Assembly: GCA_977017645.1 (NCBI GenBank)
Contig: OZ360219.1
Span: 14,446,001 to 14,510,000, forward strand
Length of the DNA stretch: 64,000 bases
Reading direction: 5' to 3'
From: Torpedo marmorata
Lineage: Eukaryota
Made by a program: the position numbers and the translations under genes
Notes under the pieces: generated by a model
Told to the model about the DNA's origin: nothing
Database searches by the model: none
Seen by the model: only the letters and a program-made list of their open reading frames with translations
Part shown: piece by piece, positions 477-58,456 of the stretch
Layout: the number at the start of each line of letters is the position of its first letter
How positions within the stretch are numbered: position 1 is the first letter of the stretch

Positions 477-720
477 TGATATGCCTATCAATTAAGCACT
501 CAAGAGACTATGAGAGGGTTAACGTACCATAGGCTTTAATATACATAGAACAGAGCTGCAGTGGACCTACAGATCTTCCGGACTGAGGGCGGAGCCCTAG
601 CACACAAGCCTTTATTCAAGAGAGAAAAGGGGAGGGATTACCTGGAGACCCAAAGGAGGGGAGAGGAGTCGTTGGGACAGACAGCAGTACACACAATACA
701 CAAAACAGTGGTTTACCACA
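477..720 (-). repeat. 3' LTR of the intact Gypsy element
   Basis: Direct repeat of 4763-5006; sense termini TGTGG...TATCA. Confidence 0.96.
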
Positions 721-735
721 TTCACCCCTCCTTTT
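721..735 (-). promoter_or_regulatory. Polypurine tract (plus-strand primer)
   Basis: Minus strand reads AAAAGGAGGGGTGAA immediately before the 3' LTR TG. Confidence 0.85.
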
Positions 736-795
736 AAAAGAGTCCAGCGGGGTGGAGTGGCCACAATACAATCTCAAAGTATTTACAGTCATAAT

Positions 796-3700
796 TTACA
801 GGTCAAGGCGATCCGGTGGTTTGGCTCGCCTCTGTGACCTGCGCAGTACCCTGGGTGCGGGTTGTGGTGCAGGGGGTACCCTGGGTGCGGGTTGTGGTGC
901 AGGGGAAGATGGCAAGGCCGTCGCCTCCTCCTGTGGTGCTGGGTGAGATGGCAGGATTGTGGGTTCCATCGCAGGTGCCTGGTCTGACGTTGTAGAAGAG
1001 GGACTAGGGAGGGGCCGCAGCGAGTGGTCTTGCCCATCGAGAGGTTCCTCCGGCGCTCCCGCGGGCGCCAGGTCCCGAATTGAGACCGTGTCCTCTCTCC
1101 CATCCGGGAAGACCACGTAGGCGTACTGCGGGTTAGCGTGCGCTAACTGCACCCTCTGGACCGCGGGCTCATATTTGCTGCTCCGGAGGTGGTTGCGGAG
1201 CAGCACCGGCCCCGGAGACGTCAGCCAGGCAGGCAGGGCGGTCCCGGTGTTCGACCTCCTGGAGAAGGAGAAAATTCTCTCATGAGGCGTTACATTTGTG
1301 GCTGTGCACAGTAAGGACCGTATCGAATGGAGGGCTTCGGGGAGAACATCTTGCCAGCGGGAAACCGGCAGTCCCCTGGACTTGAGAGCCAGGAGCGCCG
1401 CCTTCCAGACCGTGGCGTTCTCCCTTTCCACCTGTCCATTACCTCGGGGGTTGTATGCGGTGGTCCTACTAGTGGCGATGCCCCGGGTCAGCAGGAACTG
1501 GCGCAGCTCCTCACTCATAAAAGCGGATCCCCGGTCGCTATGAATGTAGTTCGGGAAGCCGAACAGCGTAAATACCTGGCGAAGGGCTTTTATGGTTGAG
1601 GCAGCCGAAGTGTCGGGGCAGGGAATGGCGAAGGGGAACCGCGAGTACTCGTCAATAATGTTCAGAAAATACACATTGCGGTTCGTGGAGGGAAGGGGAC
1701 CCTTGAAGTCAATGCTGAGACGTTCAAAGGGGCGAGTGGCTTTGATCAGCTGTGCCTTGTCGGGGCGGTAAAACTGAGGTTTGCACTCCGCGCAAACCCG
1801 GCAACTGCTGATCATTGTCCTGACCTCTTCCAGGGAGTATGGCAGGTTCTGTGACTTCACGAAGTGAAAGAGCCTGGTAATTCCTGGGTGGCATAGGTCG
1901 TTATGTAGGGCGTGTAATCGGTCGACCTGCGCGCTGGCGCATGATCCCCGGGATAGAGCATCGGAGGGCTCATTGAGCTTCCCGGGCCGGTACATGATGT
2001 CGTAATTGTAGGTGGAGAGCTCTATTCTCCACCTCATGATCTTGTCATTTTTGATCTTACCCCGCTGCTGATTGTTGAACATGAATGCCACAGAGCGTTG
2101 ATCTGTCAGCAGGGTAAAACGCTTACCGGCAAGATAGTGCCTCCAGTGCCTGATGGCCTCCACTATGGCCTGGGCTTCCTTCTCCACCGCTGAGTGCCGA
2201 ATTTCGGGGCCCTGTAGGGTTCGGGAGAAAAATGCCACCGGCCTTCCCGCCTGGTTGAGGGTAGCAGCCAGCGCGAAGTCCGATGCGTCACTCTCCACCT
2301 GGAAGGGTGTCTCCTCATCCACTGCGTGCATTGTTGCTCGCGCAATGTCCCCTTTTATAAGGTCGAATGCCTTACGTGCCTCCGAAGCAAGGGGAAATGC
2401 AGTGGATTTCACAAGGGGTCGGGCCTTATCCGCATAATTTGGGACCCATTGGGCATAATAAGAAAAGAACCCGAGGCATCGTTTAAGGGCTCTGGGATTG
2501 GCGGGGAGCGGAAGTTCCAGCAGGGGTCGCATGCGTTCGGGGTCTGGTCCAATTACCCCGTTCTCGACCACATACCCCAAAATAGCGAGGTGAGTGGTAC
2601 CAAACACGCATTTTTCTTTGTTATACGTGAGGTTTAGAGCTTTTGCCGCCTGCAGGAACTTCCGGAGGTTGTTGTCATGGTCCTGACGATCATAACCACA
2701 GATGGTAATGTCGTCAAGGTATGGGAAAGTGGCTTTGAGTTTGTAATGGTCCACAATCCTGTCCATCTCCCGCTGAAAAACAGAAACACCATTAGTAACA
2801 CCAAAAGGAAGGCGCAAGAATTGGAACAGCCTGCCATCTGCCTCGAACGCGGTGTATGGGCGGTCCTCCCGACGGATAGGGAGCTGATGGTATGCCGATT
2901 TCAAGTCGATGGTGGAAAAGAGGCGGTATTGGGCAATTTGGTTCACCATCTCCGCTATCCGTGGTAGCGGGTATGCATCTAGAAGCGTAAACCTGTTAAT
3001 GGTTTGGCTGTAGTCCACCACCATTCTGCTCTTGGCCCCTTTTACAATGACCACCTGGGCTCTCCAGGGACTATTGCTCATCTCTATAATCCCTTCCTGT
3101 TGCAATCTTTGTACCTCCGTCTTGATGAATGCTCTGTCCTCGGTACTGTAACGCCTGCTTTTAGTTGCCACAGGCCTACAGTCCGGGGTCAGGTTCGCAA
3201 ACAACGACGGAGGCGAGATCTTAAGGGTAGAAAGACCACAGGTGGTTTCGGGCGCGCTGTCCAGAAACTGGTGGTTGGCTACAGTGATCGCGGGGAGAGG
3301 ACCGTCATACCGCATTGTAACGCTCTGCAAATGGCTCTGAAAATCCAAACCCAGTAATACCGGCGCACACAAGCGGTTCATCACAAACAAGGAAAATTGT
3401 CTGTACTCTGCCCCTTGTACCCCAATGTTCGCCACACACGCCCCCCGGATGTCGGTTGTGTGGGACCCGGACGCCATGGCCACCCTCTGGCTTACCGGTA
3501 CGGTCGTTAGGCCACAGCGTTGAACAGTATCCGGGTGGATAAAGCTCTCAGTGCTTCCAGTGTCAAATAAACAATTTATCTTGTGTCCCTCGACCAGTAT
3601 GTCCATCATGGATCTTGTCAGCTGGTGGGGAACGTTCTGGTCGAGGGTGATGGATGCCAAAGTAGGGGTGAAGTCGTCTTGATCCGAGGTCTTTAAAAAT

Positions 3701-4731
3701 GGCCGCTCCCGTGGGTTGCACGTGTCGCTGGAGGTCTCTGCACAAAATGGCGGCGCCGGAAGTGCCGGAAGTAACGATGTATGGCTCTGAGATGGCGGCG
3801 CCGGAAGTGCCAGCATGAAAGATGGCCGCTTCCACTCCTCACACGCGGTCGGCGCCGGAAGTGCCAGTCTGCAAGATGGCCGCTCCCATCTCTCGCACGC
3901 GGCACTACTCGGGCCCGCGCGCGGCTTGGAGCGGCAGGCCTTCGCGTAGTGGCCTTTCTTGCCGCAGTTGGAACAAGTCGCGTCGCGGGCCGGGCAGCGC
4001 TTCCTCGGATGCTTGTCGAGCCCGCAGAAGTAGCACTTCTCGGGCTCGCGATTAACAGCTGCGGCGGTGAGAGTAGCGTTGATAGCGGTCGGGTCGCGGG
4101 TAGCGGCGGCAGCAGTCGGGTCGCGGGCCACAGCGGCCACAGTTGGATCGGTGGGGCTGGGGAACGGGGCGATCCACACATTAGGCTGGGGGTCCCGCGT
4201 CTGCATCGCGTCGGAGTTCTGCAGCGCGGACTCCAGCGTGCAAGCCATCGCCACCGCAGAACGGAGATCGAGATCAGAGTGCTCCAGCAGCCGCTGGCGT
4301 ACGTATGTTGACCTCATCCCCATAATAAAGGTGTCTCTCTCCAGCAGATCAATATGTTGCTCTTCCGTCAGCGCTTTACAGGCGCACGCTCGCACTAGGT
4401 ACTGGATGTCTCTGACAAAGTCCACCATTGACTCCCCGGCCCGCTGTTTCCGCAACGATAGTCTGTACCTTGCATAGACCTCATTAACAGGGGTCACATA
4501 GATCTTTCTCAGCACCTCCATCGCCTCGTTGTACGTTCCGCATTTCCAGATGGTCGAATACAATCGAGGGCTTACCCTAGATACTAGGACCTCTAGCTTC
4601 TGCTCGTCGCTTTCGGCCTTGACCTCCTTTGAGAACGATCGGAGGCAGCGTAGCCAGTGTTCGAATGCATGACCAGCGTCAGGAGCCAAAGGGTCGATGT
4701 CTAGTCGGTCCGGTCGGAGGGCGCCTTCCAT
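796..4731 (-). CDS. gag-pol: Gag-Pol polyprotein, 1311 aa (gag, CCHC knuckle, protease, RT, RNase H, integrase)
   Basis: CSNCGKKGHYAKAC knuckle; LFDTGS protease; LPFG and YLDD RT motifs; ESDAS RNase H; HNDLCH..CRVC, IDFKGP, SDRG and GQVER integrase motifs, in Gypsy order. Confidence 0.96.
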   Translation of the reverse strand: MEGALRPDRLDIDPLAPDAGHAFEHWLRCLRSFSKEVKAESDEQKLEVLVSRVSPRLYSTIWKCGTYNEAMEVLRKIYVTPVNEVYARYRLSLRKQRAGESMVDFVRDIQYLVRACACKALTEEQHIDLLERDTFIMGMRSTYVRQRLLEHSDLDLRSAVAMACTLESALQNSDAMQTRDPQPNVWIAPFPSPTDPTVAAVARDPTAAAATRDPTAINATLTAAAVNREPEKCYFCGLDKHPRKRCPARDATCSNCGKKGHYAKACRSKPRAGPSSAACERWERPSCRLALPAPTACEEWKRPSFMLALPAPPSQSHTSLLPALPAPPFCAETSSDTCNPRERPFLKTSDQDDFTPTLASITLDQNVPHQLTRSMMDILVEGHKINCLFDTGSTESFIHPDTVQRCGLTTVPVSQRVAMASGSHTTDIRGACVANIGVQGAEYRQFSLFVMNRLCAPVLLGLDFQSHLQSVTMRYDGPLPAITVANHQFLDSAPETTCGLSTLKISPPSLFANLTPDCRPVATKSRRYSTEDRAFIKTEVQRLQQEGIIEMSNSPWRAQVVIVKGAKSRMVVDYSQTINRFTLLDAYPLPRIAEMVNQIAQYRLFSTIDLKSAYHQLPIRREDRPYTAFEADGRLFQFLRLPFGVTNGVSVFQREMDRIVDHYKLKATFPYLDDITICGYDRQDHDNNLRKFLQAAKALNLTYNKEKCVFGTTHLAILGYVVENGVIGPDPERMRPLLELPLPANPRALKRCLGFFSYYAQWVPNYADKARPLVKSTAFPLASEARKAFDLIKGDIARATMHAVDEETPFQVESDASDFALAATLNQAGRPVAFFSRTLQGPEIRHSAVEKEAQAIVEAIRHWRHYLAGKRFTLLTDQRSVAFMFNNQQRGKIKNDKIMRWRIELSTYNYDIMYRPGKLNEPSDALSRGSCASAQVDRLHALHNDLCHPGITRLFHFVKSQNLPYSLEEVRTMISSCRVCAECKPQFYRPDKAQLIKATRPFERLSIDFKGPLPSTNRNVYFLNIIDEYSRFPFAIPCPDTSAASTIKALRQVFTLFGFPNYIHSDRGSAFMSEELRQFLLTRGIATSRTTAYNPRGNGQVERENATVWKAALLALKSRGLPVSRWQDVLPEALHSIRSLLCTATNVTPHERIFSFSRRSNTGTALPAWLTSPGPVLLRNHLRSSKYEPAVQRVQLAHANPQYAYVVFPDGREDTVSIRDLAPAGAPEEPLDGQDHSLRPLPSPSSTTSDQAPAMEPTILPSHPAPQEEATALPSSPAPQPAPRVPPAPQPAPRVLRRSQRRAKPPDRLDL

Positions 4732-4762
4732 AATTTTTTTTTTTGTTGTATGTATATTAAAT

Positions 4763-5006
4763 TGATATGCCTATCAATTAAGCACTCAAGAGACTATGAG
4801 AGGGTTAACGTACCATAGGCTTTAATATACATAGAACAGAGCTGCAGTGGACCTACAGATCTTCCGGACTGAGGGCGGAGCCCTAGCACACAAGCCTTTA
4901 TTCAAGAGAGAAAAGGGGAGGGATTACCTGGAGACCCAAAGGAGGGGAGAGGAGTCGTTGGGACAGACAGCAGTACACACAATACACAAAACAGTGGTTT
5001 ACCACA
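4763..5006 (-). repeat. 5' LTR of the intact Gypsy element
   Basis: Direct repeat of 477-720; sense strand has a TATA-like GAATAAAG, an Inr-like TCAGT and an ATTAAA poly(A) signal. Confidence 0.96.
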
Positions 5007-11083: not shown

Positions 11084-11643
11084 CATGGGATTAAAAGAGG
11101 TAACTGTTGAGATAATGGAAGCACTGCTTGACATCTTCCAAAATTGTACAGGAATGATTCTTACAGATTTAAAGAAAACAAAAGTAACCTCACTATTTAA
11201 GAAAGGAAGAAGAAAGAATACAGCAAATTACAGGGTGGAAGTAAACACGAAAATCTGTAGACACCGTGGTTGAAGTAAAAAACACAAATGCTGGAGAACT
11301 CAGCAGGTCAAACAGTGTATTTTATGTAGCAAAGGTAGAAATACATAACCGACGTTTTGGGCTTGAGCCCTTCATCAAAGTATGAGAAAATGCCGGCAGG
11401 CGTCCGAACAAAGGAGTGAGGGGGGAAGGGGGGGTGGCAAAGGCAGGAGATGATAGGTGGAGAAAGGAGGGAGGGGACAGCAGCAAAGAGGGGGAGGAGG
11501 GATGGCTAGGTGGGTGGAAAAAAACAGGAAGGACAGGTGAGGGGGGAGGGGAACGGAACAACAAGCAGGTTTAGTGGAAAGCAGAAAAGTCAATGTTAAT
11601 GCCATCTGGCTGGAGAGTGCCGAGACGGAATATGAGATGTTGT

Positions 11644-12793
11644 ATGGGTCCCAGCTATGCCTGCCTGTTTGTGGGCTTTGTGGAGCAATCCATGCTGCAA
11701 GCCTACACAGGCAAGACCCCTCATCTCTTCCTCCGGTATATCGACGACTACATCGGGGCTGCCTCATGCACCCACGATGAGCTTGTCAACTTCATCCACT
11801 TTGCATTCAACTTTCACCACGATCTCAAACTCACCTGGTCCATCTCCGATAACACTCTCCCCTTCCTGGATCTCTCTGTCTCCATCTCGGGAGACAAGCT
11901 TTCCACCGACATATACTACAAACCCTCCAACTCCCACAACTATCTGGACTACACATCCTCACACCCTGTTCCCTTTCAAGGACTCCATCCCCTTCTCTCA
12001 ATTTCTCCGCCTCCGCCGCATCTGTTCCCAAGATGAGGTGTTCCACTCCAGATCTTCTGAAATGTCTGCCTTTTTCCACAAACGTGGCTTCCCCTCCACC
12101 ACCATCAACTCAGCCCTCACCCGCATCTCCTCCATTTCCCGCTCATCTGCCCTGGCCCCCTCTGCCCCCAGACGCAACAAACATAGAATACCCCTCAACC
12201 TCACCTACCACCCCACCAGCCTCCGCATCCAACACATTATCCGCCGGAATTTCCGGCACTTGCTGCAGGATCCCACCACCAGACACATTTTTCCTTCTCC
12301 TCCCCTCTCGGCCTTCCGTAGGGACCGCTCCCTCCGCGATTCACTCGTGCACTCGTCCCTCCCCACCCATCGCACCCCCGGAACCTTCCCCTGTGCCCGC
12401 AGGAGGTGCAACACCTGCGCCCACACCTCCCCCCTCACCACGGTCCAGGGCCCCAAACAGGCCTTCCAAGTGAAACTACACTTCACTTGTACATCCAGAG
12501 GACTTATTTACTGCATCCGGTGCTCCTTTTGTGGCTTTCTATACATTGGAGAGACCGGTCGTAGATTGGGAGACCGCTTTGCTGAGCACCTCCTCTCCGT
12601 CCGCAACAACAGCGACCTCCCAGTAGCTAACCATTTCAATTCTGGGTCACACTCCCACACTCACATGTCTGTCCATGGCCTCATGTACTATCCCACCCAG
12701 ACTACCCACAAATTGGAGGAACAACATCTCATATTCCGTCTCGGCACTCTCCAGCCAGATGGCATTAACATTGACTTTTCTACTTTCCACTAA
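11644..12793 (+). pseudogene. Penelope RT + GIY-YIG endonuclease, 5'-truncated, one frameshift near 11970
   Basis: MGPSYACLF, RYIDD and LPFLD in one frame; SQFLRLRRICS and GLIYCIRC..LYIGETGR in the next. Confidence 0.9.
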
Positions 12794-12989
12794 ACCTGCT
12801 TGTTGTTCCCTTCCCCTCCCCCCTCACCAGTCCTTCCTGTTTTTTTCCACCCACCCAGCCATCCATCCCTCCTCCCCCTCTTTGCTGCTGTCCCCTCCCT
12901 CCTTTCTCCACCTATCATCTCCTGCCTTTGCCACCCCCCCTTCCCCCCTCACTCCTTTGTTCGGACGCCTGCCGGCATTTTCTCATACT

Positions 12990-13017
12990 TTGATGAAGGG
13001 CTCAAGCCTGAAACGTC
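12990..13017 (+). ncRNA. Candidate minimal hammerhead-ribozyme-like motif in the Penelope terminal repeat
   Basis: TTGATGA-[AGGGC TCAA GCCT]-GAAACGTC resembles CUGANGA / stem II / GAAA with a C-to-U change at the first core base; activity not shown. Confidence 0.5.
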
Positions 13018-13105
13018 GGTAATGTATTTCTACCTTTGCTACATAAAAGACACTGTTTGACCTGCTGAGTTTCTCCAGCATTTGTGTTTTTTATTTAAAT
13101 TACAG

Positions 13106-14728: not shown

Positions 14729-15634
14729 TGTTATGGACCATGACTGACCATTTGGACTGCGGACGGTCAGCAGGAAGGATGAAGTCTTTTGGAGTATACA
14801 CTGGGGCCAGGTACTGAAAGAGTTAACTTCCCCAGCTACTTGGTGTACCCAGATAAGATACATTGTTGCACTCTTGGTGTACCCAGACAGAGAGAGACCA
14901 GAGAGAGAGAGAGACAGACTGGACAAGATACATTTGTTTCACTTTTGCAAAAGCAGGTGCAGATCTCTGCAGGAAAAGCAGACAGTCAGTTGTGAGTTGC
15001 AAAGGCTACCGAACACAGCCAGATCCAGGCTTGTGTACAGTCAGAGAAAATCTGGCAAAATAGCACATGGCCTCCTGTCTCAGAGAAATTCTGAGAAAAA
15101 GCAACTTCTGTGGAGAACAGGCGTGAGATCAGCGAGACTAGCTGTGAGATTCAAGCACACGCCTAAATCAGTGGTAGACTGATCTGGAACTTGCAATCCT
15201 TATGAACCTACAAGAAGGGGACGTCATCAGAGAAGAAAACAAGTATTTGTAAGCATAAACAGTCATTGTCTCTCTCCAACGTTCATTCAGAAGTACTTCT
15301 ACCAGACACAGCTGAATTGAAGCCTGAACTTAGAGAGTGAATCTTGTGGACTGAATTATTCTTTTGTTTTTTTGACTGACTTGTTTTTTATGACTGACCT
15401 GGGGTTTTTGGGGAAAGTTTTTCCAATTTTACATAAGGGTTGGGCACAGACTGTAATGGTCTGGGCTTTACACACACACACATACACCTTTTAGATAAGA
15501 ATAGAGTTTATAGACATTTATAGTGGGGTTAATTGTTGTGAAATTATATGTTTACTTGTGTTTAATAAATAGTAATTACAATTTTACCCCTTTTGCATTG
15601 CGTCTTCTGTCGTTGCTGGTTTGATTTTGTAACA
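14729..15634 (+). mobile_element. Solo LTR related to the Gmr1-type element at 32696-38691
   Basis: TGTTA..TAACA termini; 4-bp TSD TTAC (14725-14728, 15635-15638); collinear with the reverse complement of 32696-33598. Confidence 0.93.
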
Positions 15635-15859
15635 TTACTAGTTCATTGGAGGCATTTATAAGCAAATTAGTCTGTATTAACACAATGCATTAATGTGGCT
15701 GCAGGAAGTAAAGAATCAGAAGATAAACTAGCAAGATTACTCCAACCATGTCATTCTGTGATTTATGTCTTTCCTTTGATTCTGCATCACATCATTTGAG
15801 TCGAGTTTATGTCACAGTAATTCTGCAACAGCATTTTATAAGCTATGCAGGTATATTTT

Positions 15860-16200: not shown

Positions 16201-16540
16201 TTATCAAAACCCCTAATCTCTAAATGCTTTCAGATACTTTGCGTGCATCCAGCTCACTACCAGATGTTGATTTCAAGTCATCAGTGCATGTGGTCAGAAG
16301 CCATTGGGTAGAGGCAACAACTTTGATGGGTCCTCATTGTCAGTTCTGATAAAGGGTCTCTGAACTGAAACATTGATTCTGTTTCTCTTCTCACAGATGC
16401 AGCTTGGCCTGCTGAGAATTTCCAACATTTTCTGTTTTTGTCCAAGGCAAAAAAGGCTTTAAAGTATCATCATTCATTCAGGTGCCTTGCCGTTCGGTGA
16501 GGGCAATCATGTCTCTCCATCCGTCACGATCTCTAACCCT

Positions 16541-16774
16541 TGTGGGGGAACGCGGTACTGCGGGCATGTCTGGGCATGTCCTCACTGGCTCACTGGGCTA
16601 ACCTGTAGCCCCTCCCCATTACATCCCCTAATAAAGGCAGAGAGCCCTAGCCTCCTCCCCTATACCTGCCTTGGACGTGAGCCAGCAGCATGTTGAGGCA
16701 TGCTCAAACTTCCTGATCAATAAAGCCTTTGATCACTTTCTTCGTGTCTGCGAGTGGTCATTGATCGCGCTACA
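16541..16774 (+). repeat. Inferred 5' LTR, 234 bp
   Basis: TGTGG..CTACA; TATA-like TAATAAAG and a later AATAAA; similar size and same position relative to the gag ATG as in the intact element; no partner LTR to confirm. Confidence 0.75.
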
Positions 16775-18878
16775 ATTTATTGATCAGAATTTTAAGTGCC
16801 ATGGAGAAGGCAAATAGACTGGAGAAGCTGGAAACCGACCCCAAGGAACCAGAGGCCTCCGTAAAGTTCGATATGTGGCTACACTGCTTGAAGGCCTATC
16901 TGAGGCGCCACGATATCACAACCGACCCGGATAAGTACGATCTGCTCTTCGCAGCGGTGGGCCACAGAGCGTACCAAATTATCCGAGACTGCACTGAATA
17001 TGAAGAGGCAATGGCTCTACTTCGACAACAATACGGAGCCCCGGCGAACGCCATGTATGCACGCTTCCAGCTGGGCTCCCGATGACAGGGTCCTGGTGAG
17101 TCGGTAGATGAGTTTGTGAGGGCCATGTGGGAGCTGGGACGAGCCTGCGGGTGCCGGGACGTGAGCGCGGCGCTCTACCAAGAGTAGCTCATCCACGATG
17201 GGCTCATCGCGGGCTTCCGCTCGCAGCACATAAGGGAGAGACTCCTGGAGGAAGGAGATCGGTCCCTCCAGGTAGTGGTGCAGATGGCCCGAGCGATGGA
17301 GACAGCCCAAAAGAACGCAGAGGCATACTCAGCGGGCCACGCGGCCACCAGGTGGGGAGTACGGGTGACGCCATCTTGGGACTCGGGGCCCCTGACTGCA
17401 GCGGCCACTGCCGACCAGGCGAGGTGCAACTACTGCGGCCAAAGTAGACACCCACGGAAGTACTGTCCGGCCCGTAGCGCAATCTGCTCAAACTGCCAGA
17501 GGAAGGGACATTATGCCAGGGTTTGTCGCTCCAAGCCCCACTCCAGCAGTGCCGCGTGTGGACCGCGACTCTCTTCACCATCTTGGACCCACCCGCTTCC
17601 GTCGTCATTTCCGGCTGCCGAAAACCGAGCTTCCAGAACAGGAGCGCAACAAAGAGGACTGACGACACTTCCTGCTTCTTCTCCGGACTTGACCGCATGT
17701 GATCCATGGGGGCGGCCATCTTTACGACCTCTCGGAGAGTCATCTTGGCGGCAGCCGCCCCAAAACAGCAGCAGCGACTCGGACAGTGAGCTGACGCTTG
17801 GCGTCCATCGTGCTGGACCAAGGGAGACCACACCAGCTGGGGCAATCGATGATGGACGTTGAGGTAAACGGTCACTCCACTGCTGCCTGTTCGACACGGG
17901 AAGCACTGAGAGCTTCATACACCCGGGCACTGCCGAGCGTTATTCCTTCACCGTGTCCCCAGCCAAGGAAAAGGTAGCACTAGCCTCCAAATCGCTCTCC
18001 GCGGAAATCCATGGAAACTGCACCGTGACCCTTACTATGGGGGGCACCAATTATAAGAATTTTAAACTGCTGGTAATGCCCCACCTCTGCGGACCGTCAT
18101 ATTGGGGCTAGATTTCCAGTGCCAGTTTAAAGGGGTGCTGATGCAGTTTGACGGGCCCCACCCCCCAGTCCCTGTCACTAATAACCAGTACCGGGAGGCC
18201 CCGCCTATTCCCCAGAGGAGGCCCAATCACACGATTGAAAGCTGGGCTGGGTACTCGACCTGCGGACTAACCACCCTCCGGGTCCCTCCACCCCCAATGT
18301 TCCAAAACCTCACCCCGGACTGTAAACCGATTGCTACTAAGAGCAGGCGATACAGCCCCGGGGACAGAAAATTCATTAAAATGGAGGTGGAGCGACCGCG
18401 GGAGGAGGGCATTATAGAGCCAAGCAATAGTCCCTGGAGGGCACAAGTGGTGGTGGTGAAGAGTGGGGAGAAACATCGGATGGTAATTGACTACAGTCAG
18501 ACCATCAACCGGTTCACCTCACTGGACGCCTACCCTTTGCCCTGCATCTCGGAGATGGTAAATGAGATCGCCAAGTACAGGGTCTTTTCGACCATAGACC
18601 TAAAAGCGGCGTACCACCAGATCCCGATTCGCCCAAAAGACCGGCTGTACACGGCATTTGAGGCCAACAGCCGACTCTACCATTTCCTGCAGGTCCCATT
18701 CGGTCTCACGAATGGGGTGTCAGTGTTCCAAAGGGAAATGGACCGAATGGTGGATGATAATAAGCTGAAGGCTACGTTTCCATACTTGGACAATGTCACC
18801 ATCTGCGGCCATGACCAAAAGGAGCACGACAAGATCCTGCAGACGATCATGTCCACCGCAAAGACACTCAACCTCACG

Positions 18879-21318
18879 TAACCATATATAACCATATAAC
18901 AATTACAGCACGGAAACAGGCCATTAGGCCCTTCCAGTCCGCACCGAACCAAACATTCCTATCTAGTCCCACCTACCTGCACCCTGCCCATAACCCTCCA
19001 CTTCCTTCTCATCCATATACTTGTCCAACTTTTTCTTAAATAATAAAATTGACTCTGCCGCCACTACTTCTCCCGGAAGCTCATTCCACACCGCTACCAC
19101 TCTCTGAGTAAAGAAGTTCCCCCTCATGTTACCTCTAAACCTCTGCCCCTTAACTCTTAGCTCATGTCCTCTTGTTTCAATCTCTCCTATTCTTAATGGA
19201 AATAGTCTATCCACATCCACTCTGTCTATCCCTTTCATAATTTTAAATACCACTATCAAATCCCCTCTCAACCTTCTACGCTCCAAAGAATAAAGACCTA
19301 ATATGCTCAATCTCTCCTTGTACTCTAGATTCTTATACCCAGGTAACATTCTGGTAAACCTTCTCTGCACTCTCTCCACCTTGTTGATATCCTTCCTATA
19401 ATTTGGCGACCAGAACTGCACACAGAACTCTAAATTAGGCCGCACTAAAGCCTTATATAATCTCAACATCACTTCCCAACTACTATATTCTATGCAATGA
19501 TTGATAAAGGCCAGCATACTAAAAGCCTTCTTCACCACCCTATTCACATGAGTTTCCACCTTCAGGGAACGATGCACCGTTATTCCTAAATCTTTCTGCT
19601 CTTCTGTATTCATCAATGCTCTCCCATTTACTACATATGTCCTGTTCTGATTCTTCTTATCAAAATGAAGCACCTCACACTTATCAGCATTAAACTCCAT
19701 CTGCCATTTTTCAGCCCACTTTTCTAAGCAGCCCAAATCTCTCTGCAATCCTTGAAAACCTTCTTCATTATCCACTATTCCACCTATCTTAGTATCATCT
19801 GCATATTTACTAATCCAGTTTACCACCCCATCATCTAGATCATTGATATATATAACGAACAACAATGGGCCCAATACAGATCCCTGAGGCACACCGCTAG
19901 TCACCGGCCTCCAACCTGACAGACAATTATCCACTACCACTCTCTGGCCTCTCCCTTCCAGCCAATGTTCAATCCATTTGACTATCTCAGAATTTATACC
20001 TAAAGACTGCACCTTCCTAACTAACCTTCCATGCGGAACCTTATCGAAGGCCTTATTGAAGTCCATATAGACAACATCCACCGCGCTACCCTCATCCACA
20101 TTCCTAGTCACCTCTTCAAAAAATTCAATCAGATTGGTCAAACAGGACCTTCCGCTCACAAATCCGTGTTGAGAGTTCCTGATCAGACCCTGTCTATCCA
20201 GATATTTATAAGTACTATCTCTGAGAACTTTCTCCATTAAGTTACCTACCACAGACGTCAAACTTACAGGCCGATAATTGCCAGGCTTCCTCCTTGAACC
20301 CTTATTAAATAACGGAACCACATGCGCAATACGCCAATCCTCCGGCACTATCCCCATCTCTAATGACATTTGGAAAATCACTGTCAGAGCCTCTGCTATT
20401 TCTTCACTTACTTCTCTCAAGGTCCTGGGGAAGATCCCGTCGGGTCCCGGAGACTTATCCACCTTTATATGCCTCAAAAGCCCTAACACTACATCTTTCG
20501 TAATCCCTATATTCTCCATATTTACTCAATTTGCTTTTTTTATCTGGCATATCTCAATATCCTTCTCCTTGGTGAATACTGAAGAAAAGAAACTGTTCAA
20601 TATCTCCCCCATTTCTCTCGGCACCACACACAGTTTTCCGCTCTGGTTCTCTAAGGGACCAATTTTGTCCCTCGCTTTCCTTTTACCATTAACGTATTTG
20701 TAAAAAACTTTTTGGATTAATTTTCACCCTGCTTGCTATAGTCTCTTCATACCTTCTTTTAGCTTTCCTAATTCCTCTCTTAAGATTCTTTTTACATTCA
20801 ATGTATTTTTCAAACATCTCCTTTCCATGCTTCTTATACTTAATGTACGCCTCCCTTTTTTTTCGAACCAAGTTTCCAATATTCCTCGAAAACCACGGCT
20901 CTCTCAAACCTTTTGCCCCTCCTTTTAACCTAACAAGAACATAAAGCTTTTGCATTCTCAAAATCTGATCTTTAAAAGACTTCCATCTTTCTACTACATC
21001 CTGCCCATAAAACAAATTGTCCCAATGCACACCCTGTAAGTCCCTTCGCATCTCCTCAAATCTTGCTTTTCCCCAATCAAAAACCTCAACCCTTGGCCCT
21101 GACTTATCCCTTTCCATAATGACATTGAAGCTGATGGCATTATGATCACTGGACCCGAAGTGCTCGCCAACACAAACCTCCATCACTTGACCTATCTCAT
21201 TTACCAACAGTAGATCTAACACTGTTCCTTCTCTGGTCGGTACCTCTACATACTGTTGTAAAAAACTATCCTGCACACATTTCACAAACTCCAACCCATC
21301 CAGCCCTTTCACAGAATG
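18879..21318 (-). mobile_element. Young 5'-truncated CR1 LINE inserted in the Gypsy RT
   Basis: ORFs 20689-21435 and 18963-20519; TATGGTTA-type tail at left; Gypsy peptide LNLT resumes as EKCVF after the insert. Confidence 0.95.
18963..20519 (-). CDS. CR1 ORF2 reverse transcriptase region, 518 aa open segment
   Basis: KSPGPDG, YRPVSLTS, QHGF, GVPQGSVLGP, KYADD and LERRRLRGDL motifs. Confidence 0.85.
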   Translation of the reverse strand: MENIGITKDVVLGLLRHIKVDKSPGPDGIFPRTLREVSEEIAEALTVIFQMSLEMGIVPEDWRIAHVVPLFNKGSRRKPGNYRPVSLTSVVGNLMEKVLRDSTYKYLDRQGLIRNSQHGFVSGRSCLTNLIEFFEEVTRNVDEGSAVDVVYMDFNKAFDKVPHGRLVRKVQSLGINSEIVKWIEHWLEGRGQRVVVDNCLSGWRPVTSGVPQGSVLGPLLFVIYINDLDDGVVNWISKYADDTKIGGIVDNEEGFQGLQRDLGCLEKWAEKWQMEFNADKCEVLHFDKKNQNRTYVVNGRALMNTEEQKDLGITVHRSLKVETHVNRVVKKAFSMLAFINHCIEYSSWEVMLRLYKALVRPNLEFCVQFWSPNYRKDINKVERVQRRFTRMLPGYKNLEYKERLSILGLYSLERRRLRGDLIVVFKIMKGIDRVDVDRLFPLRIGEIETRGHELRVKGQRFRGNMRGNFFTQRVVAVWNELPGEVVAAESILLFKKKLDKYMDEKEVEGYGQGAGRWD

Positions 21319-22197
21319 AGAAAAGTGTGTCTTTAGCACCAAAAGGCTGGCAATCCTGGTGGAGCATGGGGCTATCGCCCCCTTCCCCGAGCGTATGCGC
21401 CCCCTACTGGAATTACCCTTGCCACAGAACTCCAAGGCTTTAAAAAGGTGCCTGAGGCTCTTCTCCTATTATGCCCAGAGAATGCCTAACTATGCAGACA
21501 AGGCCCAACCTCCAGTGAGAACCACGACTTTTCCCCCGTCAGCGGAGGCCCGTAAGCTTTCGAGAGCATCAGAGGCGAGATTGCCAAGGCGGGAATGCAC
21601 GCCATTGATGAATCCGTCTCTTTCCAAGTGGAAAGTGATGCCTCTGACTTCGCCCTGGCCGCCGCGCTGAACCAAGCAGGCAGACCAGTCGCATTTTTTT
21701 CCCGTACCCACCAAGGCCCCGAACGCAGGCACTCCGCCATCGAGAAGGAGGCACAGGCTATAGTGGAGGCAGTGCGCCACTGGAGGCACTACTTGGCCAG
21801 CAGACCATTCACCCTGCTGACGGACCAGAGAGCTGTCACGTTCATGTTTAACAATAAACAGCAGGGTAAGATCAAAAATGACAAAATCATGAGGTGGAGA
21901 ATTGAGCTGTCCACCTCCAATTATGAAATATGGTACCGGCCGGGTAAGATCAATGAGCCACCCGATGCCCTGTCCAGGGGAACCTGCGCCAGGGTGCAAG
22001 TTGATCGCCTCCAGGCCCTCCACGATAGCCAGGATCACAAGGCTCTACCATTACTCAGTGGAGAAAGTAAGGGAGCTGACTCGCAATTGCCAGTTCTGTG
22101 CCGAATACAAGCCTCAATTTTATAGACCAGATAGAGCCCAACTGATCAAAGCCACTCGCCCTTTTGTACGTCTCAGCATGGACTTCAAGGGGCCCCT

Positions 22198-32695: not shown

Positions 32696-32835
32696 TGTTA
32701 CAAATTCAAACCAGCAACGACAGAAGACGCAATGCAAAAGGGGTAAAATTGAAATTTATATTTATTAAAGACAATTAAAGATATAATTTCACAACAATTA
32801 ACCCCACTATAAATGTCTATAAAAACTATTCTTAT

Positions 32836-32911
<76 letters not shown>

Positions 32912-33598
32912 AAGCCCAGACCATTACAGTCTGTGCCCAACCCTCATGTAAAAATGGAAAACCTTCCCCAAAACCCCCAGGTCAGTCATAAAATAAGTCA
33001 GTCCCAAAAATACAGTCCATCAAAATTCACTCCCTATGTTCAGGGTCCAAATTCAGCTCTGTGTGCTGGCAAGAAGGACTTCTTAATGAACGTTGGAGAG
33101 AGACAATGACTGTTTAAGCTTACAAATGCTTGGCCTGCTTTTCTTCTTTGATGACTTTCCCTTTTGGAAGATTCACGAGGATTGCGACTCCAAATCCGTT
33201 TTGGATTGAGGCGTGTACTTGGATCTCACAGCCTGTCTCGCTGATCTCACACCTGTTCTTCACAAAAGTTGTTTTAACTCTGGATTTTGCTGAGACAGGA
33301 GGCCATGTGCTATTCTCCCAGCCTTTTCCCCTGGGATGCACAAGCCTGGATTTTGCTGTGTTCTCCAGCCTTTGCAACTCCAAAACACAACTGAACCTCA
33401 ATGCTTTTTGCAGAGGTTTGCACCTGCAACAAAGTATCTCTCCAGAATCTGTCTCTCTCTGGTGTCTCTCTCTGTGTGAGTACAACAAGTCCTGGGCAAG
33501 TTAACTCTTTCAGTACCAGGTTCCAGTGTATACTCCAAAAGACTTCATCCTTCCTGCTGACCGTCCGCAGTCCAAATGGTCAGTCATGGCCCATAACA
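32696..33598 (-). repeat. 3' LTR of the Gmr1-type element
   Basis: Direct repeat of 37647-38691; TGTTA..TAACA termini. Confidence 0.93.
32839..32908. repeat. (GT)35 microsatellite inside the LTR
   Basis: Pure dinucleotide run. Confidence 0.97.
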
Positions 33599-33731
33599 CT
33601 ACGCACCCACAAAGAAAATTTTGGTCTGCAAGAACAAAATTTTGGAAATTAATTGAGGTGTCATAATATACACAAAACCCACAATGTTCATCCACAAACA
33701 CAAAATATGAAGCATTTTCATTTATAAAGTT

Positions 33732-34410
33732 TTAACATCTAGAAAGACAATCAGCAATTACATTATCTTTCCCTTTTATATGTGTTATTATCAAATCATA
33801 TTCTTGCAAAATTAGACTCCAATTCAACAACCGTCGATTCTTATTTTTCATTTTACAAAGGAAAACCAATGGATTATGGTCAGTATACACTATGAGTGGT
33901 ATTTGATCTGTACAGCTATACACCTCAAAGTGTTGTAGAGCCAACACAAGAGCTGACAACTCTTTTTCATGGTTGAATAATTCCTTTGATGATCATTGAA
34001 CTTCTTCGAGAAGTAGGATACCAGATGGTCAATGTCCTCTTCATTCTTCTTCTGTAACAGCACCGCACCCACAGCTTCATCGCTGGCATCCACGGCTAAA
34101 GAAAACGGCTGTTCTAAATTAGATGACTTAAGCACAGGTTGGTGGCATAACATGGCTTTCAATTTGACAAATGCTTCCTGACAACCTGTCAACCATACAA
34201 ATTTTTCTCCCTTTCTAAGCAAAGTTTTTACAGAACCTGCGGTAGTAGTCAATCATTCCCAGGAACCTCCTCAGAGTTGTCTTACCAGTTGGAACAGGGA
34301 ACTCGGAAATAGTCACAACCTTTGCCTCTACTGGCGCCAACTGCCCCTGTCCTACTACGTAACCCAGAGAATTAACAGTCCCATGACCCTCTCTGAAACT
34401 GGTTTTATCT
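33732..34410 (-). pseudogene. RT C-terminal remnant and RNase H
   Basis: LGYVVGQG, RRFLGM..YYRRF, AVDAS, YFSKK, YTDHNPL and IADCLSR in several frames. Confidence 0.85.
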
Positions 34411-34479
34411 GTCTCCTCCTTACCCCGGTCGATAACCAGTACCTCTGGTAAATGTTCAGTCTCTTTGTGCGGCACCTGT

Positions 34480-35769
34480 TCAAAATATGGCTTAATCATA
34501 TTCACATGACAGACCTGTGTGTCTCGTCTGCAATTAGGTCTTTCTATGACATAGGTGATCTAAATAATTTTTGACTTAACTCTATAGGGTCCTGAAAATC
34601 TAGCCCTCAGAGGATTTGATAGTGTGGGAAACAGAACTAATACATTCTCACCAGGTTTAAAAGTTCTCATCTTGGCCTTTCGATCATACCAAACCTTCAT
34701 TCTCTGTTGAGTGGCCTTTAAAGTCTCCTTTGCCATCTCACAAGCCCTATGCAACCGATCCTTAAATTTGGAAACATAATCTGACAGATTTAAATGCACA
34801 TCACTATTAATCCACTGTTCTTCTAATAATCTTAAAGGACCTCTCACCTCATGTCCGAAAACTAACTCAAATGGACAAAAACCAAGTGATTCTTGGACAG
34901 ACTCTCTGACTGCAAATAACAACAAATGAAACCCCTCATCCCAATCCTTTTCCTTCTCACAACAATAGGTTCTAATCATGTTCTTCAAAGTCGAATGGAA
35001 CCTCTCCAAGGCCCCTTGACTTTCTGGATGGTACGCAGAGGATACAATCTGTTTAACTCCCAGTCCATCAACCTGTCATGAAATTGCTGCCCTGATCTGA
35101 TTGAATTTCCCTTGGCAAACCTACCAAGGTGAAACACTTTACCATAGCCTTTACAATTGACTTTCCTTTAATGTTTCTCAGAGGAATGGCCTCTGGAAAT
35201 CTAGTGGCTGCACACATAATTGTTAACAAATACTCATTCCCCGCTTTGGTTTTGGGCAATGGGCCAACACAGTCCACAATCACCCTCGAGAAAGGCTCAC
35301 TGAAAGCAGGGATAGGCTGTAAGGGTGCCACCGGAGGACCCGGATTAGGTTTACCCACCACCTGACAAGTGTGACAATCCCGGAAAAAGCTTACAATCTC
35401 CCTTCTCATACTGGGCCAATAAAATTGTTTCATTATCTTCAGTATAGTTTTCTTCACCCCAAGGTGACCACCTAAGTGTGTGCTATGAGCCAAACTTATT
35501 ATTTCGTCCCTATATACTTTACGGATCACTACCTGCTGCACTGCTGCCCATTCTTCACTGGCAGGAAAATCACATGGTCTCCACTTTCTCATCAACATCC
35601 CATCTTTTTCATAATAACCCACTGGCACCTTTTTAATCTCCTCTTCAGAGAGAACCTTTTCCCTCACCTCAGCAAGATCAGGATCCTCCTTTTGCCTTGC
35701 TATTAGCTCCTGTCGGGATAGTGACAAATCTATGCCTTTAGGTGTCTTTTCAGTGGATGGGTGTGACAC
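34480..35769 (-). pseudogene. Integrase, frameshifted
   Basis: H..GGH/CHTC zinc finger, VDCVGPL, SDQGSNF, ERFHSTLK and FSGPY motifs. Confidence 0.88.
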
Positions 35770-35787
35770 AGGAGATTGTTCAACCTT

Positions 35788-37515
35788 TTACAGGTGTTCT
35801 TTATTATCACTGTCTTTTTCTTTCACCAAGTTATTTTCCACTGCCTTCTCTACAGTGGCATTTTTCTTAGACATGGTCCTGGTTATGGCACATACCGGAT
35901 AAATATCAGAGTCCTTCTCTGACTTATCAATGACTGGCTTAGTGGTCATTCGCACTGCAGGAACTACTTTATCCTTGGCCAAGTCATTGCCTAGCAACAG
36001 TGAGACTTCTTCTACTGGCAACTCTGATCTCACTCCTATTGTAACAGGTCCTTCCACCAAGGCTGAGTTCAACACTATTTTGTGCAAAGGAATGGACTCA
36101 ACATCACCCCCAATTCCTTTAATTAAATTCATTTCAGTAGCTTCGCAAAATTCCAAGACACTATCTAACACACGTGACTGAGCAGCTCCAGTATCTCGCA
36201 AGATTTTCACTGGAACTTGTTTTGATCCTGCCTTAACTGAAACAAAACCATCAGTCACAAAAGGTTTAAATACATCCCTAACTTTGTCAGTAAATTTGTC
36301 TCCTTCCTGGGTGTTATGCCTCTTCTCACTCTGAATACAAGCATTAGGTGTTGCATCCTTTTCTCTCTTCTTTTTCAACACTGGACAGCTTGCTAGCATA
36401 TGACCAGCCTTCCTACAGTAGTGGCAAATGGGATCTGAAGGGTTTTCCCTTTTCCACTTTCCTTCATCTTTCTCCTTAACAACACTTCCAAATTTACTTT
36501 CCACTTGCTTGCGATTATCCACAGTGTCCTTTTGGAAAATTCTGCCTGACGTCCACTTAGGCTTGTGGGTTAAAGCATATTTATCTGCTAACTTAGCTGA
36601 ATTTTGCCAGCTTTTCACCTCATTTTCATCTAAGTATGCCTTAATATCCTCAGGAACACACCTTTTTATCTCCTCAATTATTATCAATTCTCTCAATTGA
36701 TTGTAAGCATTGTTTACCGCCTTAGATGTGCACCACCGGTCAAAACACACAACCTTTTCATAGGCAAACTCTGTGTAACATTGTGTTGCTGATCTTTTTA
36801 AATTTCTAAACTTCTGTCTATAAGCCTCTGGAACTAACTCATAAGCCTGGAGTATACAATTTTTCACCGTTTCATAATCAACAGCTTGCTCCGTGGTAAG
36901 AGTAGAATAAGCTTGCTGAACTTTTCCTTTTATTACACTTTGTAACATAAGAGACCATTGGTCTTGTGGCCATTTTAATTTCACAGCCACCTTCTCAAAA
37001 TGTTGTAAGTACTTATCTATTTCCGCTTCCTCAAATGGAGGAACCAACCTAACTTCTCTACTGGCCAAAAACCTCTCAACAGGATGACAAATTTGATCTT
37101 GGTGCTCTTCTTGTCTCCTCTCATTTTCCAACTTAATCTTTTCCAGCTCATATTGCCTAATTTTCTCCTCTCTCTCTAAATCTAATCTCTTTTATTCTCT
37201 GGCTGCCTCCAAGTCTAATCTTTTTTGTTCCAATTCCCTGTCTAATTTCTTTTGTTCCAATTCCAAGTCTAATCTCTTTAGTTCTAACTGTAAGTTTTCA
37301 GAAGGTTTCCCCTTGGGAAACTGCTCTAACACACTCTCCTCAAACTTTTTTCCTTTTATATAGTATTTGACAATTTTTATCCCAATCTCTGCCTTTTTCA
37401 TTGATGGTTTTACAGAAGCAATGCCCAACTCTGTTGCTATAGCCACTAACTGTTCCTTTTAAGCCTTTTTTAAAGTATCAGGTTCACGTGATTCCAAAAA
37501 TTTTTCTACATCCAT
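35788..37515 (-). pseudogene. gag + protease with in-frame stops
   Basis: Coiled-coil N-terminus, LVPPFEE..HFEKVA, YELVPEAYRQKFR, CCHC knuckle, LRDTGA, LLGNDL. Confidence 0.85.
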
Positions 37516-37630
37516 TGTTGCTGGTTTTTCGTTACACAAACACTAGCTTTTAATTAGCTTTACAAAAGGAATGTCTTAATCCAGACTGGGATTCCTTCAA
37601 TTACCAAAATGGATCTTGATTCAAATCCTA

Positions 37631-37643
37631 GGACGAGCCCCCA
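37631..37643 (-). promoter_or_regulatory. Primer-binding site, tRNA-Pro type
   Basis: Minus strand TGGGGGCTCGTCC, 3 nt after the 5' LTR, complementary to the tRNA-Pro 3' end. Confidence 0.85.
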
Positions 37644-37646
37644 ATT

Positions 37647-38691
37647 TGTTACAAATTCAAACCAGCAATGACAGAAGACGCAATGCAAAAGGGGTAAAAT
37701 TGAAATTTATATTTATTTATTTATTTTTAAAAAAAAATATTTTATTTAAATTTTTAAATCACAAAATACATAACATAATTTTGCATATATTTCAAAAATA
37801 CATGTGATATACATTTTCTCCCCCCCTTCCCACCCTCCCCTCCCTAACCCCTATCTCCCCACTACTCTAAAAATAAAATATAGTAATATGGGGGTGAAAT
37901 TTATATTTATTAAAGACAATTAAACATATAATTTCACAACAATTAACCCCACTATAAACGTCTATAAACACTATTCTTATCTAAAGAGTGTGTGTGTGTG
38001 TGTCTATAAAGCCCAGACCATTACAGTCTGTGCCCAAACCTCATGTAAAAATGGAAAACCTTCCCCAAAACCCCCAGATCAGTCATAAAATCAGTCCATC
38101 AAAATTCACTCTCTATGTTCAGGGTCCAAAGTCAGCTCTGTGTGCTGGCAAGAAGGACTTCTTAATGAACGTTGGAGAGAGACAATGACTGTTTAAGCTT
38201 ACGAATGCTTGGCCTGCTTTTCTTCTCTGATGACTTTCCCTTTTGGTAGATTCACGAGGATTGCGACTCCAAATCAGTTTTGGATTGAGGTGTGTACTTG
38301 GATCTCACAGCCTGTCTCGCTGAACTCACGCCTGTTCTTCACAAAAGTTGTTTTAACTCTGGATTTTGCGGAGACAGGAGGCCATGTGCTATTCTCCCAG
38401 CCTTTTCCCCTGGGATGCACAAGCCTGGATTTTGCTGTGTTCTCCAGCCTTTGCAACTCCAAGACACAACTGAACCTCAATGCTTTTTGCAGAGGTTTGC
38501 ACCTGCTTTTGCAAAAGTGCAACAAAGTATCTCTCCACAGTCTGTCTCTCTCTGGTGTCTCTCTCTCTGTGAGTATAAGACGTCCTGGGCAAGTTAACTC
38601 TTTCAGTACCAGGTCCCAGTGTATACTCCAAAAGACTTCATCCTTCCTGCTGACCGTCCGCAGTCCAAGTGGTCAGTCATGGTCCATAACA
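37647..38691 (-). repeat. 5' LTR of the Gmr1-type element (contains an L1 tail insertion)
   Basis: Direct repeat of 32696-33598, adjacent to the PBS. Confidence 0.93.
37718..37894 (-). mobile_element. Very short L1 3' tail insertion
   Basis: Matches L1 3' UTRs at 7139 and 59541; 17-bp TSD TGAAATTTATATTTATT (37701-37717, 37895-37911); absent from the other LTR. Confidence 0.9.
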
Positions 38692-42799: not shown

Positions 42800-43540
42800 A
42801 ATGCTGCAAAATGTTTTCTAATTTTCTAATCTTGACTGCAAACTATTTTGTTCAGCTCTTGCCTTCCTTTGCCCTTCTAATTAATATTTTTAATACACCC
42901 TACACTTTCCATAGGCTCTCTCCTGCTTGTCCATAGGAGGTAAAGATATATTACAGACTTTTCAGGCCTGTGCCCTTCCTCAAGTTATCGGGCTCAAGCC
43001 CGAGATGTTGGTTATATGTCTTTATCTCCTATGGATGCTGCGAGACCTGCTGAGTTCCTCCAGCATCTTCGTGTTTTTACTACAGGTCGGGTACCCCGTA
43101 TCCGAAGTTCTGAATACCGAAAAGATCCAAAAACCGAACTTTTTTTTAGCGCCGACATGACGTCACAAGTTGAAACAAAATCACCACCTGACTTGCCCAT
43201 GTGGGTCTCTGACGCTCTGTTGGCGCCAGTTTGGTAACAACAGAGCTCAGAACCAGCCGGGAAGACAGACGCTGAACGGCTGGATGTCGGCTCAGAGAAG
43301 CAGGTTGGAATCTCGAGCCATCAGTGAGCAACTGGAGGAAGTCGGCGGGTCAGGCAGCGCTTGGGGAGAAATTAGGTGCAAGGGTCAGCCCTTAAACCAA
43401 AGAGCATGAATGCTGATTATCCTCATTTCAGGTAACTCCCTCCCCGCTCTCTTGGTTTACAAACTGTGTGCCGCTGTCTCCCAGCTGCAAGAGGTCGGAA
43501 GAATCCTTTCTCCCGGCGTCATCAAGGAGAGCGGCCTCCC

Positions 43541-43827
43541 AGGCAGGAGCAGGGACCTCGGGCTCCCACGTAGGAGCGGGGACCTCGGGCTCCCATGTAG
43601 GAGCGGGGACCTCGGGCTCCCGAGTAGGAGCGGGGACCTCAGGCTCCCAGGTAGGAGCGGGGACCTCGGGCTCCCGAGTAGGAGCGGGGACCTGAGGCTC
43701 CCAGGCAGGAGTGGGGACCTCGGGCTCCCGAGTAGGAGCGGGGACCTCGGGCTCCCGGGTAGGAGTGGGGACCTCGGGCTCCCGGGTAGGAGCGGGGACC
43801 TCGGGCTCCCGGGTAGGAGCGGGGACC
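43541..43827. repeat. 27-bp GC-rich minisatellite, about 10.6 units
   Basis: Unit approx. GGGTAGGAGCGGGGACCTCGGGCTCCC in tandem. Confidence 0.95.
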
Positions 43828-43834
43828 GTAGTCG

Positions 43835-44010
43835 GGGATCAGCGGCGACGGTGGGGAGGTGTCAGGGACCGGCAGCGGTGGGGAGGTGTTGGGACCAGCG
43901 CCGGCGGTGGGGAGGTGTCGAGGACCGGCGGTGGTGGGTAGGAGTTAGGGACCGGCGGCAGCAATGGGGATGTGTCGGGGACCGGCGGCGGCAGTGGGGA
44001 GGTGTCGGAG
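43835..44010. repeat. Degenerate ~27-30-bp G-rich tandem repeat
   Basis: Recurring GGGACCGGCGGCGGTGGGGAGGTGTC-like unit, about six copies. Confidence 0.8.
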
Positions 44011-58414: not shown

Positions 58415-58445
58415 CTTCAGGTCCAAATCGCCGTTTGGACTAGTT

Positions 58446-58455
58446 GGGGTCACCA
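58446..58455 (-). promoter_or_regulatory. Primer-binding site, tRNA-Trp type
   Basis: Minus strand TGGTGACCCC, 1 nt after the 5' LTR. Confidence 0.8.
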
Positions 58456-58456
58456 C

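Follow-up and report, generated by a model that had tools for sequence, protein, structure and literature searches.

A self-complementary PBS marks a clade of chromodomain-less Gypsy elements in sharks, rays and invertebrates and suggests priming of reverse transcription by the elements' own RNA

Elements in the window

We have analysed a window of 64,000 nucleotides of the Torpedo marmorata genome (assembly GCA_977017645.1, contig OZ360219.1, positions 14,446,001 to 14,510,000), the features of which are listed in Table 1. The locus of interest is the 5' end of a decayed Gypsy element (family 2), where a sequence-only reading had placed the LTR end at the CA of 16774. This boundary is fixed by paired LTRs and 5-bp TSDs in other copies of the same genome. 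Both LTRs were present in 12 of the 20 own-genome stretches fetched, and at the CA of these two-LTR copies the 5-bp TSD was exact in eight, had one mismatch in three and showed a decayed end in one. The refuting case of a different LTR boundary followed by a TGG PBS does not apply; the boundary stands and TGG is absent after the LTR. That reading was also right about the spacer (A16775), the loop of 51 nt and the leader, which spans 26 nt up to the ATG at 16801.

Table 1. Features of the window, with positions counted from its first letter
Feature	Position	Strand	Remarks
Family-1 element	477..5006	-	identical 244-nt LTRs, GCTGT target duplication, single 1311-aa ORF
Family-1 5' arm TATGTATATTAAA	4821..4833	-	pairs with 4749-4761
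Family-1 initiator-like A	4870	-	-50 from arm end; AATAAAGG at 4895-4902
5' LTR of decayed family-2 Gypsy element	16541..16774	+	234 nt, TG..CA
AATAAAGG, putative TATA-like box	16630..16637	+	32 nt above initiator-like A in families 1-3
Initiator-like CCTATACC	16659..16666	+	A16662, -63 from arm end: putative start of RNA and 5' end of primer
Putative self-primer, 63 nt	16662..16724	+	would be paired only over its 3' 14 nt; basis: junction fossils
Small hairpin in unpaired part of putative primer	16687..16704	+	sequence and fold
Helix 5' arm	16711..16724	+	14 nt in family 2; here 16713-16724 exact; ends with AATAAA at 16719-16724
Loop	16725..16774	+	GCC-initiated U5 stem (folds) stacked on primer end; putative poly(A) site near 16743
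1-nt spacer and PBS	16775..16789	+	complementary to arm; without TGG
Family-2 gag-pol	16801..22197	+	stops, frameshifts; LINE insert at ~18881-21314; cut off near 22197, without 3' LTR
Gmr1-like element	~32700-38690	-	SCAN-bearing Gag; integrase before largely deleted RT; long LTRs; TGGGGGCTCG site
tRNA-primed Gypsy element	54299-58830	-	PBS starts TGGTGACC; LTRs ~94% alike; served as outgroup

The window also holds a family-1 element, the ORF of which encodes a Gag with two CCHC knuckles, PR, RT, RH (with intact RNase H motifs) and IN, and lacks a chromodomain. Its 13-bp helix, 59-nt loop and 31-nt leader were reproduced, and with them the observation that both families share one layout with different paired bases. 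In family-1 leaders (window 4732-4748; L051-L080) a run of A of variable length, ca. 5-17 nt, lies between the PBS and the ATG. As to the remaining elements, the outgroup is presumably CsRN1-like, judging by its Gag features, and a piece of the LTR end of the Gmr1-like element is found at ~15470-15640; RT deletions occur in many similar Gmr1-like copies (L176-L215). Long TIRs, 97% complementary, flank a 385-aa open frame without Pfam match at 11297-13071, and a tandem array with a 27-nt period covers 43482-43881.

The helix and its distribution

The claim from which the analysis started, that CTGATCAATAAA (16713-16724) and TTTATTGATCAG (16776-16787) are exact reverse complements of each other, is correct, and this pair is the longest inverted repeat within 16480-16830. 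When the LTR was shuffled by mononucleotides, a null already suggested along with the claim, a 12-nt match to the leader was reached in 0 of 100,000 shuffles (the maximum was 10). The family as a whole pairs over an even longer stretch, at least 14 bp in 24 of the 29 copies read (30 were fetched), and the window helix measures 12 rather than 14 bp because of a substitution at 16712. With a folding z-score of only -1.2 for 16662-16803, the overall stability of this region is no evidence; a search of Rfam gave no match at E up to 1.

Relatives of the family-1 polyprotein are numerous, 2320 of the 7991 scored having an E of up to 1e-50, and their named hosts include rays, a shark, whipworms, an anemone, an isopod and a damselfly. 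A first look at the Torpedo marmorata genome gave 67,836 candidate copies of the clade. Scans of metagenome and MAG contigs yielded 85 loci, many of them fragments, duplicates or without a 5' LTR (e.g., L094, L099, L111, L114), which were dropped to keep 20 non-redundant loci with LTR end and leader; relatives were not found in scans of IMG/VR. Together with eight own-genome elements from four families these 20 form a panel of 28. Within it the leader, taken from position +2, matches its own LTR over a median of 14 nt, with at least 11 in 26 of the 28 (range 11-18 bp), while the median against non-cognate LTRs is 5 (756 pairs, of which the eight reaching at least 10 are all between close kin). 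The sum of cognate matches was reached by 0 of 100,000 permutations. Two elements, L112 and L135, pair imperfectly and fail a strict helix test. In 13 of the 28 the LTR end was called at a CA with the arm known beforehand; in the 15 where it was fixed by paired LTRs, 15 pair over 12-17 nt. None of the 28 has a TGG within 8 nt of the LTR end, whereas a TGG site is present in all five outgroup elements, whose match to their own LTR extends over only 3-5 nt. One panel member (L108:96-178) has an LTR of only ~83 nt, with a helix of exactly 11 bp and a loop of 31 nt.

These are elements of the Ty3/Gypsy type, with TG..CA LTRs, a TSD and the order PR-RT-RH-IN. Gathering the clade by RT search, as the sequence-only reading had advised, placed all helix-bearing rows of RT-RH trees in a single clade with an SH-aLRT of 100 and a long stem. 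The trees comprised 64 rows and were repeated with a mixture model on 45, leaving out 19 long-branch, redundant or mis-extracted rows; they were built without family 4 and without Tf1/sushi references. The RT-RH scores against Ty3 were 183.5 bits for the element studied here and 279.4 bits for the tRNA-primed element of the window. A chromodomain is absent not only from the family-1 ORF; there is no PF00385 among the 120 homologues listed, and of the 15 chromodomain matches (PF00385) in the genome none adjoins an integrase. The helix is the mark of a single RT clade, made up of chromodomain-less Gypsy elements from sharks, rays and invertebrates. Matches to PF24626 were considered as chromovirus references within the same genome and discarded; those examined were Gmr1-like or members of the helix clade itself. 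Animal Gypsy elements were also seen inside several bacterial MAGs (L149-L165, GTDB MAG contigs), most likely through host contamination.

Covariation in the helix

Of 80 loci of family 3, 73 were aligned by sequence alone, blind to structure, and gave 67 unique rows; in the other seven the upstream anchor was absent. All ten recurrent arm/leader haplotypes, covering 49 rows, are perfectly Watson-Crick paired, and the 16 imperfect haplotypes are each a singleton. Pairing falls sharply beyond pair 14, pair 15 being formed in only 8 of the 67. All seven variable pairs change on both sides; over 65 distinct rows, with L289 left out for a 2-nt insertion in the arm, there were 107 two-sided against 3 one-sided cells (counted as sequences, not events), an excess reached by 0 of 500 shuffles and far above slid controls. 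In the adjacent U5 stem the situation is reversed, with no two-sided and 39 one-sided (G-U) cells.

The sequence-only reading had taken the different paired bases of the two families as natural covariation and thus as a sign of selection on the helix. The covariation is real and lineage-wide, but selection base by base is not needed to account for it, as the contrast between 107:3 and 0:39 indicates. In retroviruses the PBS is rebuilt by plus-strand strong-stop DNA that copies the primer. A self-primer that copied the LTR arm into the PBS in each cycle predicts precisely this contrast between a two-sided helix and a one-sided U5 stem, and the two-sided changes look like the signature of such templated copying, not only of selection. 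In a subfamily of family 4 (the related copies L433-L437) the PBS has grown to 22-24 nt through the addition of copied LTR bases, up to the start of gag, and these copies appear to have spread with it. There is a methodological warning here, as perfect covariation can arise by templated copying instead of selection.

Junction fossils and the probable length of the primer

If the RNA of the element served as its own primer, a joint of primer and cDNA would have a predictable order, namely LTR sense sequence ending in AAA, a single T and the complement of the LTR end. An exact-pattern search of the genome found 100 such joints in families 1-4 (9, 34, 50 and 7, respectively) and none with the reversed pattern as control. 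Reciprocal joints, which symmetric inversion would be expected to produce, numbered four in family 3 and none in family 2, with patterns slightly unequal in length. The 89 joints read in families 1-3 include 54 that extend to the LTR start and are undiagnostic, because any switch within an inverted repeat yields them. The remaining 35 represent 32 distinct truncated events, of which 13 switch at an initiator-like A (within -2..+5, allowing microhomology; 10 within -2..+2), 13 do not reach it and only 6 occur within the ~95 nt above it. This A is found at -50, -63 and -53 from the arm end in families 1, 2 and 3, in each case 32 nt below AATAAAGG, which itself stands at -82, -95 and -85. Under a uniform null the clustering has a p of about 7e-7, an optimistic value, since the 13 of 32 joints that stop short of the initiator make this null overstate the significance. 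The interval accepted for a stop was chosen on families 1 and 3, and the position in family 2 was predicted beforehand and then tested there; the family-2 stops fell at -65, -61, -61, -58 and -58, two of the five at the +5 edge of this interval. A further family-2 cluster at -20..-24 is ambiguous, as the hairpin base and the detection limit of the pattern coincide there. In family 4 there were six truncated joints (five of them related), with stops by -24.

Donors were internal to the element, and 22 of the 28 identified were in the orientation of a misplaced plus-strand transfer. An exact 5-bp TSD was present in 11 of the 42 fossils checked. One copy (L404) has, at the end of its PBS, an insertion that completes the complement of the whole putative primer; it reads LTR, PBS and complement of the remaining primer, and then continues with the leader from the point just past the PBS. 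Taken together, the fossils suggest that families 1-3 probably prime with a 5' fragment of 50-63 nt, of which only the 3' end is paired. Two fold-back LTRs with two U3 ends (L399 and L429, 439 and 412 nt) were also seen; their 5-bp duplications, with one mismatch and exact, respectively, mean that the integrase accepted two left ends.

The arm end and the poly(A) signal

The pairing of the poly(A) signal, which had seemed from the two window families to be part of what is conserved, did not hold across the clade. Of 27 arms, 17 end in AATAAA or ATTAAA, and the other ten have GTTAAA, AGTAAA, TTTAAA and similar, so that poly(A) masking is not the common denominator; what is kept instead is AAA|RCC, nearly constant at the arm end. 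In most folds the predicted stem begins directly after the arm, and in family 3 it is conserved. Outside families 1-3 an AG at -11/-10 is nearly constant (A in 15 and G in 18 of 20); a splice acceptor is one conceivable reading of it. A third duplex 3' of the PBS, a feature of the Tf1 "pretzel", was not seen in the folds.

LTR fossils ending in poly(A) were found at two to three loci, with the A runs 17-19 nt below the arm hexamer; one, from family 2, ends in A10 at 19 nt. For family 3, three loci ended in poly(A), and one adjoining a simple repeat 36 nt down was left uncounted. None was found in family 1, nor below the upstream AATAAA or the family-1/3 form of AATAAAGG. These few fossils lend weak support to the arm hexamer as the poly(A) signal, leaving a repeat of ~19 nt below the putative cut. 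The upstream AATAAA was rejected for this role by logic, as an RNA ending there would have no repeat below the priming point.

A model of self-priming and its alternatives

The helix is most likely to be read as a duplex of self-primer and PBS, with priming of reverse transcription and not mainly masking of the poly(A) signal as its function. In the model that we propose, the RNA would start at A16662, below the TATA-like box, as motifs and fossils indicate; 16711-16724 would then pair with 16776-16789, the complementarity being plain and the RNA fold, with the U5 stem stacked alongside, predicted. The RT-RNase H of the element is the most likely enzyme, as in Tf1, for a cut at AAA|GCC (16724/16725) that would free the 5' fragment of ~63 nt, and the paired 3' end of this fragment would prime minus-strand DNA at the spacer A. 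The first strand jump may use as its repeat the ~19 nt from the cut to the poly(A) site, and the position of the hexamer at the arm end would thereby be explained. Finally, plus-strand strong-stop DNA would copy the paired part of the primer, so that the PBS is rewritten from the LTR in every cycle, as fossils and covariation suggest, and copying that ran on to the primer 5' end would leave the genomic joints. We regard this model as a whole, a Gypsy element without tRNA primer whose PBS pairs over 14 bp with its own LTR and whose reverse transcription is primed by its own RNA, as probable. Two details would look the same in the genome, as a primer a few bases shorter would yield identical joints, and if an RT switched to the arm of RNA that had not been cut, it would likewise stop at the RNA start. 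A half-tRNA primer is ruled out, the site changing with the LTR.

Four other readings were ranked, beginning with priming in trans. The fossils define both ends of the primer, not its origin, and with thousands of LTR copies in the genome (3682 candidates) and a poly(A) hexamer at the arm end, the 50-63-nt primer might be a separate short RNA, derived for instance from solo LTRs or from transcripts that ended early, and trimmed to the duplex by a host nuclease with no cut by RT. We consider this improbable, given the near-perfect match of arm and PBS copy by copy and the conserved AAA|RCC with its stacked stem, which both fit a Tf1-like cis structure, and given the poly(A)-ended fossils, which stop 17-19 nt below the hexamer and not at the arm end. 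Somewhat more improbable still is a plain Tf1 mechanism, with an RNA starting at or just above the arm and a fully paired primer of 11-14 nt. It would agree with the sharp end of the helix at pair 14, with the AG at -11/-10 outside families 1-3 (which resembles an initiator), with the 11 nt paired exactly in L108 and with the family-4 stops by -24, and it may apply to the invertebrate members; against it, the joints of families 1-3 accumulate at an initiator-like base that stands 32 nt below AATAAAGG and, at a distance specific to each family, 50-63 nt above the arm end.

That selection maintains the helix mainly as a mask of the 5' poly(A) signal, with priming by some other route, seems very unlikely. 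The hexamer does lie inside the helix in both window families and, from the two to three poly(A)-ended fossils, is seemingly used, so that masking could be a side benefit of self-priming. However, 10 of the 27 arms are without a canonical hexamer, there is no recurrent haplotype with the G-U pairs or mismatches that a merely selected helix tolerates, and the fixed position of the helix 1 nt from the LTR end, the absence of another primer site and the junction fossils also speak against it. Least credible of all is that the joints are artefacts of host replication or assembly at an inverted repeat and carry no information on priming. Inverted repeats do promote switching, and the four reciprocal joints could be so explained, but the asymmetries of 50:4 and 34:0 (with the slight difference in pattern length), the exact integrase-type TSDs in 11 of 42, the stops at the initiator and the element-internal donors largely refute this reading already.

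If the self-priming model is true, read-through fossils map primer ends and start sites from genome sequence alone, and so provide genome-only evidence for an intermediate of reverse transcription, with RNA ends that can be tested. Known self-priming would be extended to a large clade of animal elements, represented in this genome by tens of thousands of candidate copies, and from a primer both long and only partly paired it would follow that the extreme 5' bases are not the only ones to serve in this role. The findings also bear on the question of whether hairpin priming preceded tRNA priming, as raised in the available part of PMC3601003. What is new here is the proposed long primer, the copying signature and the mapping by fossils. 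Tentatively, and with rather less confidence than in the model for this locus, we suggest a pan-animal clade of chromodomain-less Gypsy elements in which self-priming evolved independently of Tf1/sushi and the shark and ray families of which may use a capped, tRNA-like 5' fragment of 50-63 nt as primer, paired through no more than the 14 nt at its 3' end, released at AAA|GCC next to the poly(A) signal and recopied into the PBS in each cycle.

Comparison with known systems

Some animal Gypsy families are reportedly annotated as self-primed in Repbase, and a clade of this kind has reportedly been called "Selfy", a name not found in the full-text literature searched. That literature, which excludes most subscription journals, Repbase and supplements, gave no report of self-priming in a chromodomain-less animal Gypsy clade or of a long self-primer. 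The Cigr-1 clade (Ciona, molluscs) has elements of similar size with a single ORF and two CCHC knuckles; its occurrence in molluscs is described in PMC6238403, the accessible portion of which gives no PBS information. Neither there nor in the portions available of PMC3601003, PMC3670739, PMC13524379 and PMC5443660, which provide clade context, is the helix reported.

The tRNA-primed metazoan Gypsy elements, for which we assume the labels Mag-, CsRN1- and Gmr1-like from motifs and domain order, resemble the clade described here in domain content, short LTRs, 5-bp TSD and polypurine tract, but they have TGG sites, no LTR complement and a place outside the helix clade. The putative long primer, paired only at its 3' end, itself resembles a tRNA primer.

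Self-priming has been demonstrated only in the Tf elements of fission yeast and predicted in their chromovirus kin and two plant lineages, as far as the consulted sections of PMC7175516 and PMC6317226 go. The plant lineages, one chromovirus (Tcn1) and one copia (TAR, with Houba and Osr-1), show that self-priming arose more than once; no primer 5' end is given for them in the same excerpt of PMC6317226. The criterion used there, a complement of at least 10 bp between the LTR and the region 0-5 bp past the 5' LTR, corresponds to what is seen at the PBS position in our panel, with at least 11 bp in 26 of 28. Skipper is without such an LTR complement according to the part of PMC5006619 at hand.

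The closest likeness is with Tf1 and Tf2 of Schizosaccharomyces pombe, Tj1 (for which self-priming is a prediction, PMC4600332), Tosmo1-3 and Tcry1, which, in the text available of PMC10085805, PMC7175516 and PMC4600332, also use no tRNA and have a post-LTR PBS complementary to LTR-encoded RNA. In the Tf1/sushi group extra stems flank the central duplex, as one predicted stem does here, and the structure comprises three duplexes; the group also has a chromodomain (PMC10085805, in part), which the clade described here lacks. Unlike Tf1/sushi, its arm ends in AAA|RCC beside a poly(A) hexamer and its loop is only 23-67 nt. The Tf1 primer consists of the first 11 bases, freed by an RNase H cut between 11 and 12 (PMC7175516, as excerpted), and in Tf2 the choice of start site governs the primer (PMC5341516, likewise). 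In families 1-3 the fossils would place the RNA start not at the arm but 50-63 nt above its end, leaving the arm 36-49 nt inside the RNA. The mechanism predicted here would work like the self-priming of Tf1, yet without two features of the Tf1/sushi elements, the chromodomain and the primer at the extreme 5' end.
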